The position numbers were made by a program, and so were the translations under genes. The notes below the pieces were generated by a model, which saw only the letters and a list, made by a program, of their open reading frames with translations, had not been told where the DNA came from and made no database searches. 64,000 nt of DNA. Source: Vicinamibacterales bacterium. GTDB lineage: Bacteria > Acidobacteriota > Vicinamibacteria > Vicinamibacterales > CAVVIG01. Location: the NCBI GenBank assembly GCA_035652075.1, contig DASREL010000107.1, positions 12,385-76,384 of the forward strand, read 5' to 3'. Below are positions 2,881 to 62,981 of this stretch, piece by piece; positions within the stretch are counted from its first letter, which is position 1, and every line of letters starts with the position of its first letter.

Positions 2881-2966
2881 CACGAAACACACGAAAACAC
2901 GAAACGCACGAAACACTCTTTGTACAAAAGACCTTTCGTGGGCTTCGTGCTTTCGTGGCTTTCGTG
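2881..2966. repeat. Heptamer-array hairpin: CACGAAA x4 followed by TTTCGTG x4
   Basis: CACGAAA starts at 2881, 2890, 2898 and 2907. TTTCGTG/CTTCGTG starts at 2934, 2943, 2951 and 2960. Both arms show spacings of 9, 8, 9. The apex is CTTTGTACAAAAG. Confidence 0.9.
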
Positions 2967-2975
2967 GCCAAGCCC

Positions 2976-4428: not shown

Positions 4429-4935
4429 TCAGCCGGACCCGAACACGATCGTGTCGTGCTCGCCGGCCTCCGCAACCTGACCGGTCGCGACCGCGCGCAC
4501 GACGCCCCACAGGCGCACTAATCGACTCGACGGCACGTCCCAGTAATCCACGCGGTCGATCGTCACGGTAAAGATCGCGCTGTCCGGATCGTCGGCACCT
4601 TTCGGAAACCACGCGCGATACGTCGGGTTCCACATCTCATGCATCCGCGCGACATCGTGCGTCACCGAGGCGCGGCCGCTGACCGAGACGTAGCGATCGC
4701 CCTTGTCGCTGATGAAGGTGACGTTGACGCGCGGATCGCGGTGGACGTCGGTGGTCTTCTGTGACGAGAGGTGAGTGAGGAACACGAGCGAGGCATCCCG
4801 CTCGACGCGCTCCAGCAGCATCGGCCTCGCATGCAGCGCATCGTCGGTCGCGACGGTGGTGACCATCGCGACCGGGATGCCGTCGATCAGCCGCCGCAAC
4901 TCAGCGACTGCGCGATCCTGATCGCTTTGAACCAC
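4429..4935 (-). CDS. Pyridoxamine 5'-phosphate oxidase-like / general stress protein 26 family
   Basis: AELRRLIDGIPVAMVTTV...ALHARPM...VTFISDKGDRYVSVSG pattern of the GSP26/PNPOx-like fold. The start is set at in-frame GTG 4935. The longer track ORF would read through the upstream gene. Confidence 0.7.
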   Translation of the reverse strand: MVQSDQDRAVAELRRLIDGIPVAMVTTVATDDALHARPMLLERVERDASLVFLTHLSSQKTTDVHRDPRVNVTFISDKGDRYVSVSGRASVTHDVARMHEMWNPTYRAWFPKGADDPDSAIFTVTIDRVDYWDVPSSRLVRLWGVVRAVATGQVAEAGEHDTIVFGSG

Positions 4936-5587
4936 GTGAACCTTTTGAACCTCTTGAACCTCTTGAACCCCTTGAACCTGTATCGCTCGCCTGCGCCGGC
5001 ATGAACCGCCGCACGGCACCGCCGACGGTCTGGCCGACGAGCTGTGCGCCGCGCTGCAGCACGTCCATCGTCTTCAGCGTCTGGTCGTGCCATTCTTTCG
5101 ACGCCGCACGGTTGACGCCGCCCTCGGCGATCGCGGTCAATTTCTTGTCGGCGTTCTTCTCGTCCTTCAGGTTTTGTTCGAGCAGCTTCGCGACCTGTTT
5201 CTCGCCAAGGACGCTGGCGTACGTGCGGACGGTGCCGTAGGTGGCGATCTCGTAGTGCTCGACCTTTTGCGCGGCGGTGATCAGCATCGCATCGAGAAGC
5301 GCGCCAGGCTCGCCGCTTTCCATCAGCTCCTGGCCTTCTTCGAGCAGTCCTTCCATCGCCTCGCACGTCTTGCCCGATGCATCCTCTTTGAGCGCCTTCA
5401 GCGCCTGGCTGACGCGGCGTTCGTGCGTCTTGGTCTCCGCGAGATGTTTGCGAAACGCCGACTGCAGCTCCTTGCGCGAGGCCTTCTCGGCCATCATCGG
5501 CAACGCTTCGATGAGCTGCTGTTCAGCGTTCAATAAATCGTTCAGTTCCTCGACAAGATGTTCACGGAGTGACGCGACTGATGCCAT
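4901..5587 (-). CDS. DUF892 / YciE-YciF ferritin-like stress protein with a Gly-Ser-Arg repeat tail
   Basis: MASVASLREHLVEELNDLLNAEQQLIEALPMMAEKA and KVEHYEIATYGT motifs. GGAGG lies 7 nt upstream of ATG 5587. The tail GSRGSRGSRGSKGSRGSK is encoded by the 9-nt array. Confidence 0.8.
   Translation of the reverse strand: MASVASLREHLVEELNDLLNAEQQLIEALPMMAEKASRKELQSAFRKHLAETKTHERRVSQALKALKEDASGKTCEAMEGLLEEGQELMESGEPGALLDAMLITAAQKVEHYEIATYGTVRTYASVLGEKQVAKLLEQNLKDEKNADKKLTAIAEGGVNRAASKEWHDQTLKTMDVLQRGAQLVGQTVGGAVRRFMPAQASDTGSRGSRGSRGSKGSRGSKRSGSRSR
4926..4979. repeat. 9-nt tandem array (TTGAACCYN x6)
   Basis: tttgaacca cgtgaacct tttgaacct cttgaacct cttgaaccc cttgaacct. Direct repeats only. Confidence 0.9.
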
Positions 5588-11681: not shown

Positions 11682-11822
11682 GGTGCAGAAGTGCACGGTG
11701 CACAGGTGCATGGTGCTTTGGTGCACGGTGCACCGGTGCAGGGCGCACCCGTGCACGCTGCACGCAGCACCCTGCACCCTGCACGCAGCACCCTGCACCC
11801 TGCACGCGGCACCCTGCACCAC
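11682..11822. repeat. GTGCAC-core array hairpin (about 18 units, period 7-8)
   Basis: The left half is GGTGCAN units and the right half is NTGCACC units, for example ctgcaccctgcacgcagcaccctgcaccctgcacg. It starts 12 nt after the amidohydrolase stop. Confidence 0.9.
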
Positions 11823-24478: not shown

Positions 24479-24573
24479 GTATTGAGGATTGCGGATTGAG
24501 GATTGCGGATTGATTGTTGATTTACCCCGCCAATCGTCAATAAATCCGCAATCCGCATTCCTCAATCCGCAAT
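24479..24573. repeat. ATTGMGG array palindrome (family copy 1)
   Basis: attgagg attgcgg attgagg attgcgg attgatt gttgatt ... aataaat ccgcaat ccgcatt cctcaat ccgcaat. It fills the whole etfA-etfD spacer. Confidence 0.9.
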
Positions 24574-33496: not shown

Positions 33497-36037
33497 ATGA
33501 CCGAGTTCAAACCACAAGCCCTCGACAAGAAGTGGCAGCAGGCGTGGACTGACGCGAACGCGTTCGAAGTCCAGATCGATCCCTCGCGCGAGAAGTTCTA
33601 CACGCTCGAAATGTTCGCGTATCCGTCGGGCCACGCGCACGTCGGACACGTTCGCAATTACATCATCGGGGACGTCTGTGCGCGGACGAAGCGGATGCGC
33701 GGCTTCAACGTCCTCCATCCGTTCGGGTGGGACGCTTTCGGCCTGCCCGCCGAGAACGCCGCCATCAAGACCGGCACGCATCCCGAGGCCTCGACGCTCG
33801 CCAACATCGCCCACATGAAAGGGCAGTTGCAGCGCCTCGGCATCAGCTACGCGTGGGATCGCGAGATCGCGACCTGCCTGCCGGACTATTACAAGTTCAA
33901 CCAGTGGATTTTCCTCAAGATGTACGAGCGCGGGCTCGCCGTGCGCCGGCGCTCGACGGTCAACTGGTGTCCGAAAGACGAAACGGTCCTCGCCAACGAG
34001 CAGGTGATCGATGGAGCCTGCTGGCGCTGCGGGACGACGGTCGTCGCGCGCGAACTCGAGCAGTGGTTCTTCCGCATCACCGCATACGCCGACGAGTTGC
34101 TCCAAGGCCTCGACACGCTGAAAGAGTGGCCCGAAAAAGTCGTCGTCATGCAGCGCAACTGGATCGGCCGATCCGAAGGGGCGCGGGTCAAGTTCGCGAT
34201 TGCCGGCAGCCAGCAGCCAGCATCCGGCAGCGATGCGATCGAGGTGTTCACGACCCGTATCGACACGATCTTCGGCGCGACGTTCGTGCTGCTGGCGCCC
34301 GAGCACCCGCTGGTCGAGAGATTCGCCGCCGAAAGCAGCGATCCGAAAGGGTTCCGCGATCGCGCCGCGAAACTGCGCGCGACCGACCGCGAAGCGCGGC
34401 TGACCGGCGCGACGAAGGAAGGATTCGACACCGGACGAAAGGCCATCAACCCGTTCACGAACGAAGAGATTCCGATCTGGGTCGCCAACTTCGTGCTGGC
34501 TGAGTACGGCACCGGTGCGCTGATGGCGGTCCCCGCGCACGACGAACGCGACTTCGAATTCGCCAGGAAATTCAACCTGCCGATCCGCGTCGTCGTCACG
34601 CATGGCGACGACACGCCGGTGGCGGATTCGATGTCGATGGCGACGACCAACTACGGGACGCTTGTCAATTCGGGTCCGTGGAACGGCAAGCAGGCCCCCG
34701 CGGTGATGACCGAGATGATCCGCGACGCCGAATCGCGCGGCATCGGCAAGGGCGAGGTGCAGTACCGGTTGAAGGACTGGGGCATTTCGCGTCAGCGGTA
34801 CTGGGGCACGCCGATCCCGATGATCTACTGCGAGAAGGATGGCATCGTGCCGGTCCCGTACGCCGACCTGCCGGTGAGGCTGCCGAAGTTCGCGAGCTTC
34901 ACCGGTCGCGGCGACTCTCCGCTCGCGCAGGTGCCAGAATTCGTCAACGTCACGTGTCCAACGTGCGGCGGTCCCGCCAGGCGCGAGACCGATACGATGG
35001 ACACGTTCGTCGACTCGTCCTGGTATTTCCTGCGGTTCGCCGATCCGAAGAACAGCGAGCTGCCGTTCGATCCGGTGGCTGCCGGCTACTGGATGCCCGT
35101 CGATTTCTACAGCGGCGGCGTCGAGCACGCGATCCTGCACTTGCTGTATTCGCGGTTCTTCACGCGCGTCCTCCGCGACGTCGGCCTGGTGAACTTCGAT
35201 GAACCGTTCAAGCGACTGCTGACACAGGGGATGGTGCTGAAGAACGGCGCCGTCATGTCGAAGTCGAAAGGCAACGTCGTCGATCCCGACGACATGCTGC
35301 AGAAGTACGGCGCCGATGCGCTGCGTCTCTACGTCATGTTCGTGGCGCCGCCGGAGAAGGAAGTGGAGTGGAGCGATGCCGGCCTCGAGGGCAGCTTCCG
35401 CTTCCTCGTCCGCGTCTGGCGTATGGTCGATCACTGGTGCGAGACGATTGGCGGGGAAGGCATCCCGGCGTGCGGCGACGACTGCCTCGAGAGCGAACGC
35501 GCGCTGCGCCGGAAGACGCATCAGACGATCCAGCGCGTGACCGTTGACATCGAGGAACGGATGCACCTGAACACGGCCGTCTCGTCGCTGATGGAGCTCG
35601 TCAACGAGCTGTATGCGTTCAGCGAAACCACCGCGCACGGTGCGCCGACGAAGGCGGAGCCGGCCGCGGGACGCGTCGAGCGTCCGCAGACGATCGCGGC
35701 GCTGCGCGAAGCGATCGACGCGCTCGTCGTGATGATCTCGCCGTTCGCGCCGCACATGGCCGAAGAGCTGTGGCAGATGCTCGGTCATCCAGACACGCTG
35801 ACGAAGGCGAAGTGGCCGGCGTTCGATCCGGCGATCGCCAAGGCTGACGAAGTCGTCGTCCCGGTGCAGGTCAACGGCAAGGTGCGCGGCCGTGTCACCG
35901 CGCCCGCCGATGCGAGCGCGGATCAGCTGCGCGAGCTCGCGCTCGCCGATCCTGGCGTGCAAACGCACACGGCGGGGAAGACGGTGCTGAAGGTGCTCAT
36001 TGGGAAAGGACCCATCGTCAGTGTCGTTGTCAAATAG
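33497..36037 (+). CDS. leuS: Leucyl-tRNA synthetase
   Basis: [14 protein letters not shown] (HIGH) and VMSKSKGN (KMSKS). GAGGTGG Shine-Dalgarno sequence. Confidence 0.95.
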
Positions 36038-36608
36038 ACGTCAACCACGGAACGCACGGAACCCACGGAAACTGTTCTTGTTCTGTGCGTTCTGTGCCTT
36101 CTGTGGTTGTCTTTCGTCAGGATGCGGGTACGCGCTCGCGGGCCGTGGATCCTTCTTGCCCGCCTATATCCAGACGATCGGCGTCCCGGCGTTCACGAAC
36201 CGCACCACGGTTTTCAACCTCGAGACGCTGTTGACGACGAAGGTCCGATCGGAATTCATCGGCCGCGGCAAGTATCAGGTGCTGCCGCAGAACACCGGCG
36301 TGGACGGGCTGCTGACCGGCGAAGTAACGGCGGTGACGATTACGCCGGTCGGGTTCAATCCGAACCAGGCCAACCTCGCGACCAGTTACAGCGTCACGAT
36401 GACCGCGCGGATCGAGTTCAGGGATCTCCACGAAAACAAAGTGCTGTGGGAAAATCCTGCGGTGATGTTCCGCCAGGATTACCCGGCCACGAGCGGCGCG
36501 CCGATCGGCAACCCCGTCGCGTTCTTCCAGCAGGACGCCAGCGCGCTCGAGCGCATGACCTCCGAGTTCGCGCGGACCATCGTCAGCTCCATCCTGGAAG
36601 CTTTCTGA
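36021..36608 (+). CDS. lptE: LPS-assembly lipoprotein LptE-like
   Basis: Lipobox-like LSSGC, then [12 protein letters not shown]...IGVPAFTN. Conserved leuS-lptE-holA order. The start is uncertain (GTG 36021, TTG 36027 or TTG 36000). Confidence 0.7.
36046..36105. repeat. Heptamer-array hairpin: CACGGAA x3 followed by TTCTGTG x3, period 9
   Basis: CACGGAA at 36046, 36055 and 36064. TTCTGTG at 36081, 36090 and 36099. Confidence 0.9.
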
Positions 36609-36609
36609 T

Positions 36610-37578
36610 TTGGCCACACTGACCGTTGCCGCCGTCCGCAAGCAAATCGAGTCAGGCGAGACCGATCCGATTTACCTGCTGACCGGTGAAGACGACATCG
36701 AGAAGTCGGCGCTCGCCGGCCATTTCGCCGAACTGGTCGACGAAGGGCTGCGCGCGTTCAACGTCGAACGGATCCACGCGGGCGAGTGGACGACGGGCGA
36801 CAAGCTGACGGACGGTGTGTCGTCGCTCATCGATGCGGCGCGAACGCTGCCGATGATGGCGCCGCGGCGTGTCGTCATCGTGCAGCAGGCCGAAGCGCTC
36901 CTGACGCCGAAACGCGAGAGCGACGCGGCGACCAAGGCGCTCGCGCAGCTCGAATCGCTACTCAACGCGCCCGAAAAAGAGACGACGATCGTGTTCGTGG
37001 CCGCGTCCGTCGATCGGCGCAGCCGCATGTTCAAGCTGCTGCAGAAGGTCGGGACCATCGTCGAATGCGGCGTGATTGCGGATCAGGCCGACGCCGAACG
37101 ATGGATTCGCAACCGCGTGGCCGCGAACGGTGTGGAGATCGATCCTGCGGCCGCGCGGGCGCTCGCTCAGCGTGCCGGCCCGGACGTCCGGCGCCTGCGG
37201 TCCGAAATCGATCGGCTCCTGCTCTACGCGTACGGCCAGAAGAAGATTGGGATGGACGACGCGCGGGCGATTGCGGGTCCGGCGGCGCTGCAGGACGACT
37301 GGGCGATGGCGAACGCGATCGAAGCGGGGCAGCCGGGCGAAGCGCTGCGTCAGCTGGCGTTGATTCTCGACAACGGAGCGGCGCCGGAGATGGTGCTCGG
37401 TCAGCTTGGCTGGCTGGTGCGCGCCAAGTTTCCACAGCTCGCGCCGGCGACGGTGCCCGGCGCGGTCGATGCGGTGTTCCGCACGGATCTCGACCTCAAA
37501 CTCTCGGCCGGAGATCCGCGCGTTCTGCTGGAACGATTGATCGTGGAGTTATGCGCGCGACGCCAGGCGCGTCGATAG
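36610..37578 (+). CDS. holA: DNA polymerase III delta subunit HolA
   Basis: Family-typical N-terminus (IYLLTGEDDIEK) and length. Synteny after lptE. TTG start. Confidence 0.8.
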   Translation: MATLTVAAVRKQIESGETDPIYLLTGEDDIEKSALAGHFAELVDEGLRAFNVERIHAGEWTTGDKLTDGVSSLIDAARTLPMMAPRRVVIVQQAEALLTPKRESDAATKALAQLESLLNAPEKETTIVFVAASVDRRSRMFKLLQKVGTIVECGVIADQADAERWIRNRVAANGVEIDPAAARALAQRAGPDVRRLRSEIDRLLLYAYGQKKIGMDDARAIAGPAALQDDWAMANAIEAGQPGEALRQLALILDNGAAPEMVLGQLGWLVRAKFPQLAPATVPGAVDAVFRTDLDLKLSAGDPRVLLERLIVELCARRQARR

Positions 37579-37850: not shown

Positions 37851-37944
37851 GTAATGCGGATTGAGGATTGCGGATTGCGGATTGATTGTCGATTCCGCAA
37901 ATCACCAATAAATCCGCAATCCTCAATCCGCAATCCGCAATGAC
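37851..37944. repeat. ATTGMGG array palindrome (family copy 2)
   Basis: aatgcgg attgagg attgcgg attgcgg attgatt gtcgatt ... aataaat ccgcaat cctcaat ccgcaat ccgcaat gac. It shares the core ATTGATTGTYGATT and the end CAATAAATCCGCAAT...CCGCAATGAC with copy 1. Confidence 0.9.
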
Positions 37945-59443: not shown

Positions 59444-59548
59444 GTGGTGCTGAGTGCACCGTGCAGGGTGCAGCGTGCTTTCGGTGCGCGGTCCGCACGT
59501 TGCACCAGGTGCACCTTGCACGCTGCACCCTGCACTTTTGCACCGCCA
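59444..59548. repeat. GTGCAS-core array hairpin (second locus of this word)
   Basis: ggtgct gagtgcac cgtgcag ggtgcag cgtgctt ... ttgcac caggtgcac cttgcac gctgcac cctgcac ttttgcac. It lies in the kinase/rsmE divergent spacer. Confidence 0.85.
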
Positions 59549-62115: not shown

Positions 62116-62913
62116 TCACGATTTTTTCAACAACAGGCCGACCCATGAATCCTCTTCGCGTTCCCACACGACCTCGGCCGCCGCGAACGCGCGGACGACC
62201 GTGTCGCGTTCGTGGGACTGCAGGCCGCTCAGGATCAAGGCGCCTCCAGACCTGACGGTGGCGAGTAGTGTCGGAGCCGATCGCTCGAGCAAGGCGCCCG
62301 TCAGATTCGCGAGGACCACGTCAGCAGGCGACAGCGCCGCCGCGCCGAGGTCGGCGACGTCGAACCGCACGTGCCGCACGTCGGGATTGAGCTCGAGGTT
62401 CTCGCGTGCCGACTGGATCGCATCCGGATCCAAATCGATCCCGATCGCGGACGCCGCGCCGAGCCGATCAGCCGCAATCGCCAGCACTCCAGAGCCTGTG
62501 CCGACGTCCAGGGCAGTCTTGCCGCCAAGATCGATCTGTTGAAGCGCGTCGAGACACAGCCTGGTCGTCGCGTGATGTCCGGTGCCGAAGCCCATCGACG
62601 GGCGGATTACGACAACGATGTCGGGATTCGGGGTTCGGGATTCGGGATTCGGAAGAACGGTGATGCGGCCAACGGTGATCGGCGCGAGGCCTTCCTGCGA
62701 TCGCCGTGCCCAGTCTTCGTCGGATACGTCGATCGGCGTAACGGCAAAACGCTGCGACAGGGAAGCGCGAGCCGCGTCGCGCGACGCCGCATCGACGAAA
62801 AACACGCGAAACCCCTCGTCGTGCCCTTCGATCGCCGTTGGAGAGAAGTCGTCGACGGCCACCAAGACAAGGTCGGACTCGCCGACCACATCCAGCGCCG
62901 GGTAATAACGCAC
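62116..62913 (-). CDS. prmA: Ribosomal protein L11 methyltransferase PrmA
   Basis: MGFGTGHHATT and LDVGTGSGVLAIAA motifs. The start is set at GTG 62913 (MRYYPALDV). The track start at 62988 would read through a 9-nt array and overlap dnaJ. Confidence 0.85.
   Translation of the reverse strand: MRYYPALDVVGESDLVLVAVDDFSPTAIEGHDEGFRVFFVDAASRDAARASLSQRFAVTPIDVSDEDWARRSQEGLAPITVGRITVLPNPESRTPNPDIVVVIRPSMGFGTGHHATTRLCLDALQQIDLGGKTALDVGTGSGVLAIAADRLGAASAIGIDLDPDAIQSARENLELNPDVRHVRFDVADLGAAALSPADVVLANLTGALLERSAPTLLATVRSGGALILSGLQSHERDTVVRAFAAAEVVWEREEDSWVGLLLKKS
62623..62650. repeat. Intragenic heptamer array GGGATTC x4 inside prmA
   Basis: gggattc ggggttc gggattc gggattc. It encodes PNPESRTPNP in a variable loop. 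Confidence 0.85.
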
Positions 62914-62981
62914 CCTAGGCACCCCAAGCACGATTGGCACCCCAGGCACCTTAGGCACCCCAGGCACCCTACGCACCCTGT
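62910..62981. repeat. 9-nt tandem array GCACCCYAG x8
   Basis: gcaccctag gcaccccaa gcacgattg gcaccccag gcaccttag gcaccccag gcaccctac gcaccctgt. It lies between the dnaJ stop and the prmA start. Confidence 0.9.

Follow-up and report, generated by a model that had tools for sequence, protein, structure and literature searches.

Period-9 hairpin repeats encode the LptE signal peptide at the leuS-lptE junction of a Vicinamibacterales genome

The junction between leuS and lptE in a soil Vicinamibacterales bacterium (Acidobacteriota; GenBank assembly GCA_035652075.1, contig DASREL010000107.1, positions 12,385 to 76,384) carries a hairpin whose two arms are tandem arrays of 9-nt units. The whole stretch of 64,000 nt is called the window below, and its features are collected in Table 1. 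The open reading frame (ORF) 3' of leuS encodes LptE, the lipopolysaccharide-assembly lipoprotein (Pfam PF04390; E 1.4e-14, 55 bits against a cut-off of 23, residues 50-190), and it has both the N-terminal lipidation-site Cys and the gene order leuS-lptE-holA. Homologues of this LptE number 6775. The closest homologues, together with a PadR regulator and ADOP-type MacB/FtsX permeases encoded elsewhere in the window, assign the DNA to Vicinamibacterales, Acidobacteriota. The motif CGY[AST]LAGRGSFLP, starting at the lipobox Cys, is conserved in those listed, and Cys followed by GY.LAGRG is invariant in an alignment of 43 sequences as well as in 120 listed homologues.

Table 1. Features of the leuS-lptE-holA locus and other repeat arrays of the window.
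Feature	Position	Strand	Remarks
leuS (leucyl-tRNA synthetase)	33497..36037	+	ORF; Pfam tRNA-synt_1_2, tRNA-synt_1, Anticodon_1; stop TAG 36035-36037
Shine-Dalgarno-like GGAAAGGA	36003..36010	+	10 nt 5' of GTG 36021; doubles as LeuS G-K-G codons; putative role
GTG, most likely lptE start codon	36021..36023	+	overlaps last 17 nt of leuS
lptE ORF	36021..36608	+	195 codons from GTG 36021; Pfam LptE
Hairpin left arm	36042..36070	+	CACGGAA at 36046, 36055, 36064, period 9; codes (Q)PRNARNPRK, probable n-region
Hairpin loop	36071..36080	+	10 nt; in-frame TTG 36078 is the sole alternative start 3' of the left arm
Hairpin right arm	36081..36109	+	TTCTGTG at 36081, 36090, 36099, period 9; codes FCAFCAFCG, hydrophobic h-region
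Lipobox-like L-S-S-G-C	36111..36125	+	Cys codon 36123-36125 is predicted residue 1 of mature LptE
holA (DNA polymerase III delta)	36610..37578	+	TIGR01128, E 1.1e-46; completes conserved order leuS-lptE-holA
Second copy, unit CACGAAA / TTTCGTG	2881..2968	.	periods 9-8-9; non-coding; ends 8 nt before ATG of ubiD (UbiD Pfam)
One-armed array TTGAACCTC x6	4927-4979		at gene end
Period-7 GTGCACN hairpin	11682-11820		5' of ubiA
Period-7 GGATTG[AC] / AATCCGC hairpin	24481-24573		abuts ATG 24572 of CCG/Fe-S oxidoreductase gene
Period-7 GGATTG[AC] / AATCCGC hairpin	37858-37941		between divergent rpsT and padR
Period-7 GTGCACN hairpin	59454-59535		between Ser/Thr kinase gene and rsmE
One-armed array TCGGGAT x4.6	62621-62652		at gene end
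One-armed array GCACCCTAG x8	62910-62979		at gene end

The hairpin begins 4 nt 3' of the leuS stop codon. In an inverted-repeat search its arms were found to be 29 nt each and 83% complementary as DNA, and Tandem Repeats Finder (TRF) returned two period-9 arrays of 2.9 copies. The pattern CACRRAANNCACRRAA has 7 matches in the window against 0.00 expected, and these occur only at the leuS-lptE junction and at 2881-2966. No Rfam match was found anywhere in the window, apart from chance-level miRNA matches at this locus. In the lptE frame the left arm reads CCA CGG AAC GCA CGG AAC CCA CGG AAA (PRNARNPRK), and the right arm reads TTC TGT GCG TTC TGT GCC TTC TGT (FCAFCAFC), after which come G-C-L-S-S-G-C. 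Since the hairpin stands in the LptE frame, 5' of the conserved and presumably lipidated lipobox Cys, the signal peptide must be hairpin-encoded. A preliminary description of this DNA had claimed as much, with the right arm as the h-region, and both claims are borne out; direct reading also confirmed its repeat coordinates, arm units, translations, the LSSGC, and the G-U pair in sense RNA that becomes a C-A mismatch in antisense. It missed the dispersal of the repeat family, the left arms that are untranslated or in another frame in many relatives, and the h-regions that are repeat-encoded without a hairpin.

The h-region comprises 14 residues coded by the loop and the right arm, within the usual range of ~7-22. 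Read from the putative start GTG 36021 the n-region carries 5 Arg and 1 Lys, and read from TTG 36078 it is uncharged. At the lipobox ([LVI][ASTVI][GAS]C) the window has S-S-G-C with Leu at -4, and LSS[GA]C is common in relatives. The recorded gene call P0003 (150 aa) starts at TTG 36156, 3' of the lipobox Cys, and so is without a signal peptide. This start is almost certainly a miscall that leaves the protein too short, probably caused by the unusual 5' end of the gene.

At every locus with the array, the right arm (xTC TGy Gxx) encodes Phe/Leu-Cys-Ala/Val repeats, and these form the hydrophobic core of the signal peptide. Among the 112 homologues with a full N-terminus, C..C occurs in the signal peptide of 58 and C..C..C in 34. 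No link between such arrays and signal peptides in general is visible across the 80 relatives' loci described below and the window, where three successive [LFVI]C[AVGLSTI] triplets gave 10 matches at lptE and 2 elsewhere.

The same junction was compared across relatives, namely 80 species-level Vicinamibacterales loci with a match to the LptE profile, with junction counts made over 73 loci (individual loci and contigs are cited by L numbers). leuS lies directly 5' of lptE in nearly all 80, and 47-167 nt separate the leuS stop from the Cys codon. A strong inverted repeat (score >=23) is present at the junction in 20 of the 73 loci, the window included, and begins -5 to +20 nt from the leuS stop. 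The usual unit is CAC[AG]GA[AG]GA / TCCTCTGTG. The right arm of these hairpins invariably gives (V)LC(V)LC, and its frame with respect to CTGTG is that of the window's FCA. Arrays of the right arm alone encode LCVLCVLC h-regions in the short-gap loci L057, L016, L030 and L063, and L029 and L061 have no array and an ordinary signal peptide. Other lineages carry other array families at the same junction (GGGGCTN, CTGGTTG, GGTGGCT and a 15-mer). The junction is therefore a preferred home for arrays, with the LptE h-region repeat-derived in a large part of the order. In this comparison of relatives' junctions, which had been suggested as a check, array hairpins recur in 20 of 73 loci, and many relatives keep a repeat-encoded h-region without one.

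Two further observations were made at this junction. In L009, L017, L036 and L053, G-rich period-7 GGGGCTN arrays with G-quadruplex potential start 1-2 nt after the leuS stop, and in L009 the array pairs with a C/T-rich right arm almost wholly by G-U (-78 against -28 kcal/mol for the two strands). In L078 (2923-3010), an 81% identical relative from a long-read metagenome-assembled genome, the hydrophobic VLRVLCVLG frame is shifted by one base relative to the lipobox Cys, probably through an assembly or sequencing indel in the repeat, and L078 was left unused.

Relatives differ in how the lptE frame meets the element. In one arrangement, ATGA at the leuS stop (32 of 73 relatives, via the rare Ser codon TCA) or GTGA (14) is present and the lptE frame passes through the left arm, for example MKLATTGDTVDTEDRTRRHF. 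In a second, found in at least 8 relatives, an in-frame ATG or GTG in the loop is followed by a textbook n-region (e.g. L014, MRIASRFFLCVLGVLCVCAAPGC), and two of these relatives, L020 and L073, have in-frame stops in the left arm. Here the left arm would be leader RNA, and its GGAGGA and AAGGA units look like sequestered Shine-Dalgarno sites. The third arrangement, with a short loop lacking ATG and GTG, is that of the window's clade of six sequences (the window, L081, L082 and L203-L205).

In this clade lptE translation probably starts at GTG 36021, or at a neighbouring TTG 5' of the hairpin, with the left arm read as the n-region; TTG 36000 and TTG 36027 are the other upstream candidates. 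Among in-frame starts, only the GTG lying 17 nt short of the leuS end holds the same position throughout the six sequences, each of which also keeps AAAGGA 10 nt 5' of it and has no ATG or GTG in its loop. This GTG arises from a leuS Ser codon, AGT, which accounts for 3.3% of Ser codons in the window's genes and yet is retained in 6 of 6. Directly 3' of the leuS stop, AGA CGT (RR) in the window corresponds to AAG AAG (KK) in L081, so that the charge is kept through 5 nucleotide changes. The left arms of all six are read as net-positive, Arg/Lys-rich peptides, across two different frames. Because there is no loop start, the GTG is kept through a rare AGT and the charge is kept from RR to KK, we infer that the left arm is translated in this clade. 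The proposal that the left arm is a charged n-region is thus most probably right for the window's clade, but not for the many relatives in which this arm is untranslated or in another frame.

A start at the loop TTG 36078 would instead leave the left arm untranslated, and the hairpin would be a 5' leader that hides the ribosome-binding site (RBS) and start codon and couples lptE translation strictly to leuS. A loop start is the commonest arrangement in relatives: ATG or GTG gives a canonical K/R n-region in L007, L011, L014, L020, L025, L039, L058 and L073, and is a second candidate in L013 and L028. The left-arm units of such relatives that resemble Shine-Dalgarno sequences are paired to CCTCC/TCCTT, and in the window GGAAA lies 6 nt 5' of TTG 36078. 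However, the peptide from this TTG would be an uncharged 15-residue leader, and the codon itself is CTG in L082 and absent in L203-L205. Added to the change from RR to KK, to left-arm frames that are positive throughout and to the rare AGT that preserves the GTG, this favours the upstream start and makes the loop start unlikely in the window.

Several points weigh against translation of the left arm from GTG 36021. The start is read from sequence, and gene callers give similarly uncharged, short N-termini for a few homologues. Both the GTG and the Shine-Dalgarno-like motif sit in conserved LeuS coding sequence, the rare-codon argument alone being independent of LeuS. None of the three sense frames of the units contains a stop, and for this reason an open frame through the left arm is uninformative. 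The phase between the arms varies across the wider family (classes 5/10/5); arm-to-arm codon phase was rejected as a test of left-arm translation, as it is unconserved and open frames carry no information. LSSGC also departs from the textbook lipobox in having its Leu at -4.

Compensatory synonymous changes actively keep the arms complementary. From the window to L081, CAC...GTG becomes CGC...GCG in every unit; left-arm CCA and GCA codons are replaced by CCG and GCG, and right-arm TGT by TGC, all of them synonymous replacements. Third codon positions pair with third codon positions and co-vary synonymously, and both arms jointly use A/T-ending codons that are rare in this genome. In an alignment of the six clade sequences RNAalifold gave a 25-bp consensus helix with 94% of cells paired and 8 pairs changed on both sides. 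None of 500 shuffles matched the observed percentage paired or covariation score, and 4 of 500 reached 8 double-change pairs. When the partner was slid by 1-3 columns, pairing fell to 33-56%.

These changes bear on whether selection acts on the peptide alone, in the form of a periodic Cys-rich h-region whose complementarity to the n-region codons is incidental. LCV, LCA and FCA repeats are indeed widespread in LptE homologues, also at loci without a left arm. In both arms, however, the compensatory changes are synonymous and at third codon positions, and hairpins of the same units occur in non-coding DNA, which together make this explanation highly improbable. A process at the level of DNA is a stronger candidate. 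Concerted changes of units within an arm fit slippage and template switching, and under concerted evolution of this kind slippage would homogenise the units within an arm and intrastrand template switching would match each arm to its partner in a selfish or neutral element, tolerated by lenient signal-peptide n- and h-regions. In each arm, the three units differ in concert between the window and L081; the units of any one locus are alike and those of separate loci differ; and the right-arm-only arrays persist partnerless. The unrelated array families at the same junction elsewhere also agree with such a process, as do the non-coding hairpins of the window, whose pairing is nearly perfect, equal on the two strands and free of wobble bias.

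The preliminary description had taken the better pairing of the plus strand as a sign of selection on RNA structure, on the peptide or on both. The plus-strand RNA folds at -44.3 kcal/mol (z score -6.0) and the minus strand at -37.3 (z score -4.2), each relative to shuffles of the same sequence. The difference comes with three non-Watson-Crick positions that are G:T on the plus strand and C:A on the minus strand, all at one unit position, so that they count as one kind of change. Each pairs the G of CGG (Arg, codon position 2) with the first T of TGT (Cys). A Watson-Crick pair there would put Gln (CAG) in the n-region or Arg (CGT) in the h-region, which explains the wobble in each unit by the needs of the peptide; in L081, two of the three units are already CAG, perfectly paired and with Gln. 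Strand asymmetry was also rejected as decisive evidence for RNA structure on a comparison with 105 ordinary 96-nt sense windows, whose mean difference is -1.8 (standard deviation 5.4); 17% of them reach the -7 kcal/mol gap and 12% fold at -44.3 or below. As a sign of selection on RNA it is accordingly weak.

Counts over the 20 junction hairpins gave left-G:right-T 42, A:C 20, T:G 7 and C:A 7. A strand-neutral comparison of G:T with A:C was set aside as evidence, the excess being just ~2:1 (42+7 against 20+7) and confined to left-G:right-T. This suggests that it reflects a C-to-T bias of the pyrimidine arm or hydrophobic coding at least as much as RNA selection. Within the six-sequence clade G-U cells number 17 against 4 A-C cells, with five of the 17 being one shared position.

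Outside this junction, the units belong to a family with a constant architecture, in which the arms are tandem 9-nt units (CAC[GA][GA]AA plus 2 nt) and the outer ends are CCAC...GTGG. The leuS-lptE hairpin has at least three units at 9-nt spacing, an inverted partner array and CCAC...GTGG ends, and metagenome loci are alike. Several copies exist at unrelated loci, in the window at 2881-2968 and, in five relatives (L012, L024, L039, L042 and L009), between the genes for an ABC ATPase and its permease. This ABC-junction copy fills the gap between the genes, from 2-4 nt after the stop to ~10-15 nt before the next ATG where read (L012, L024), and its ends CTCCACCAC...GTGGTGGAG match those of the lptE copies in the same genomes. 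On these grounds the leuS-lptE hairpin is probably one copy of a dispersed palindromic repeat family, over which the lptE reading frame grew at the Vicinamibacterales junction.

The exact array CACGGAANNCACGGAANNCACGGAA is present in at least 120 metagenome contigs (39-71% G+C) and in 88 stretches of a viral collection, and often forms CCACGGAA...TTCCGTGG hairpins. Neither leuS nor lptE was found near it in the 120 metagenome contigs, the only set examined for this. A stop-to-stop ORF test for intergenic metagenome copies was uninformative, the arrays sitting at ORF edges. On L200 two hairpins of ~90-105 nt (CACGGAA/TTCCGTG; 1317-1403 and 1619-1725) have homologous loop sequences, and each lies 7-24 nt after the stop of a minus-strand gene in an operon, with TAATGA overlapping the element end; they look like a dispersed, possibly mobile, element. 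Three TTCCGTG arrays and CCACAGATG arrays adjoin aroA on the metagenome contig L097 (49% G+C), and the only named close homologue of its AroA comes from a Prevotellaceae bacterium (71% identity). Because these arrays adjoin a Prevotellaceae-like aroA, the unit family appears to extend beyond Acidobacteriota. The low-GC contigs of L096 and L130 carry only restriction-enzyme and group II intron genes.

Phage-like contigs carry the units in one-armed form. L232 (IMG/VR contig 3300037541_000777, 69% G+C) has copies at 1056, 1882, 2554, 3410 and 4985, and here as in L230, L220 and L242 each contig holds 5-11 copies of (TTCCGTGNN)3 in a single orientation. Those read lie inside ORFs, in the frame S-V-S-S-V-C-S-V-G, with CGGAG-like motifs flanking both sides. 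One is in the N-terminal part of the terminase large subunit (TerL_ATPase, E 1.9e-32), and others belong to the C-terminal tails of two ORFs, one HNH-like and one small. Where the flanking genes are co-directional, one-armed copies have TTCCGTG on the sense strand in 16 cases against 4, and the gene upstream of one-armed copies is on the same strand in 31 against 9, both counts including related phage-like contigs with redundancy.

No stop codon can arise from the units in five of the six reading frames, and the length of the units is in every case divisible by three. Non-coding copies keep the 9-nt period as well. The period is therefore a property of the family that was not tuned at lptE, and it let this family, unlike those of period 7, enter a reading frame. 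The array is in frame because of its period, as had been noted, but this is not a local adaptation. Limited searches of the literature, covering the unit sequences as well as repeats of Acidobacteria or Vicinamibacter, found nothing specific, and the period-9 family seems to be undescribed. A more far-reaching interpretation, that this is an undescribed coding-compatible repeat class spanning phyla, of unknown mechanism and repeatedly recruited into proteins, which at lptE acts as an RNA device tying LptE to LeuS translation, is doubtful.

Known repeat families offer partial parallels. Repetitive extragenic palindromic (REP) sequences and the BIME elements can fold as RNA hairpins, and have been proposed to stabilise upstream mRNA and tune relative expression. 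The leuS-lptE element resembles the REP, BIME and REPIN sequences of Enterobacteria and Pseudomonas, which are short dispersed imperfect palindromes in many copies, lying between operon genes just past stop codons (surveyed in PMC3733652). REPs differ in being extragenic single palindromes of 20-40 nt that bear a GTAG or CGTC tag and have a cognate RAYT transposase, whereas this element has arms of 9-nt-unit arrays and CCAC...GTGG ends and is translated inside the lptE ORF. It shares with REP/BIME the many-copy imperfect palindrome and not the extragenic position. The GTAG/CGTC tag is absent from the hairpin ends, and a RAYT transposase was not searched for; we know of no transposase for the period-9 family.

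Rickettsia palindromic elements (RPE) are a palindromic repeat family found in frame within protein genes as tolerated peptide segments (PMC10969869). The phage terminase copy and the LptE copy are likewise in frame within genes. RPEs are, however, ~150 bp long, restricted to Rickettsia and possessed of their own conserved peptide, and are not short-unit arrays. To our knowledge, no RPE has been reported to supply a signal peptide. The leuS-lptE element resembles REP/BIME in placement and RPE in its in-frame translation, and is a member of neither, since it has no GTAG/CGTC tag, has array arms, and differs in taxa and lengths. Palindromic repeats within genes are already known; we found no description of one that provides, from its two arms, the n-region and the h-region of a signal peptide, with the intermediate evolutionary states still present among relatives.

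Mycobacterial interspersed repetitive units (MIRU) are intercistronic tandem repeats of 46-101 bp, with reading frames overlapping the flanking stop and start codons in a way that suggests translational coupling. They are like the leuS-lptE element in being tandem repeats in intercistronic regions of operons, but are direct only, lack inverted arms and are not in the signal peptide of the downstream protein. The cyanobacterial STRR and the Beggiatoaceae TAACTGA repeats are abundant intergenic arrays of 7-nt units, often in 5' leaders and possibly post-transcriptional in action (PMC4679880; PMC4692102). They resemble the window's period-7 arrays, and are essentially direct, whereas the CAC/GTG family has period 9, commonly forms inverted pairs and also occurs in coding sequence. 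In coupled operons, RBS-sequestering hairpins place a stem at or just past the upstream stop that holds the downstream Shine-Dalgarno sequence and start. Relatives with loop starts share this arrangement; in the window the start codon lies 5' of the stem and the stem itself is coding.

Taken together, the elements usually lodge in the gaps between operon genes, a few bases past a stop codon. At leuS-lptE the lptE frame would have been extended over the element, so that the right arm became the h-region, and with a short loop without a start, translation from GTG 36021 would make the left arm an Arg/Lys-rich n-region. In the transcript, the hairpin might set the ratio of leuS to lptE expression, or make lptE translation depend on ribosomes arriving from leuS. 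Such an RNA role is put forward tentatively and by analogy: the post-stop operon position, the recurrence at the junction and the orientation bias of one-armed copies are features like those of REP/BIME and of coupling. We hold it and neutral concerted evolution at the DNA level to be about equally likely, neither of them reaching an even chance. A purely neutral element sits less easily with the recurrence of array hairpins at this junction, starting no more than 20 nt from the stop, in ~20 of 73 species-level genomes, and with the 16 to 4 orientation bias of one-armed copies, yet an insertion preference could produce both. Against an RNA role there are also the strand asymmetry that lies within the genome background, the lack of a consistent strand bias in the window's non-coding hairpins and the lack of a U-tract.

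It is very improbable that the hairpin acts as an intrinsic terminator or attenuator and stops most leuS transcripts short of lptE. The stem is stable and directly follows the stop, and its tail, TCTTTCGTCA, has 5 T in 10; it was not called in a terminator scan, however, and the tails of the 20 junction hairpins have a mean of 3.1 T in 10 and none above 5. Both the right arm and the tail code for LptE, and a scan of 35500-36700 found no promoter-like site. Termination at the hairpin would therefore deprive LptE of any transcript, although LptE is essential in those model organisms that have been studied. This candidate was rejected for want of a U-tract at the leuS-lptE hairpin.

An essential outer-membrane assembly protein, then, can draw its export signal from a repetitive palindrome, and one stretch of DNA can meet the demands of base pairing and of two different peptides. 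The comparative series includes left arms that do not code, start codons placed in the loop and hairpins that code in both arms. The lptE gene call is corrected, and a rule for calling lptE starts in Vicinamibacterales follows. The analysis also points to very abundant short-unit arrays in Vicinamibacterales, with one period-9 family also found in phage-like contigs and in a contig resembling Bacteroidota. Should the arrays prove regulatory, this would concern many operon junctions of soil Acidobacteriota.

Arrays of period 7-9 number 146 in 543 kb of Vicinamibacterales DNA. All other paired hairpins of the window are non-coding; they lie directly 5' of ubiD, of the CCG/Fe-S oxidoreductase gene and of ubiA, or in the rpsT/padR and kinase/rsmE regions (Table 1). 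Those of GTGCAC type have up to ~10 units per arm and fold at -99 to -114 kcal/mol. AATCCGC arrays recur ~500 nt 3' of the lptE Cys codon in L023-L026, L029 and L033, and GAGGTTCAA-type arrays are also present in L072 and L076.

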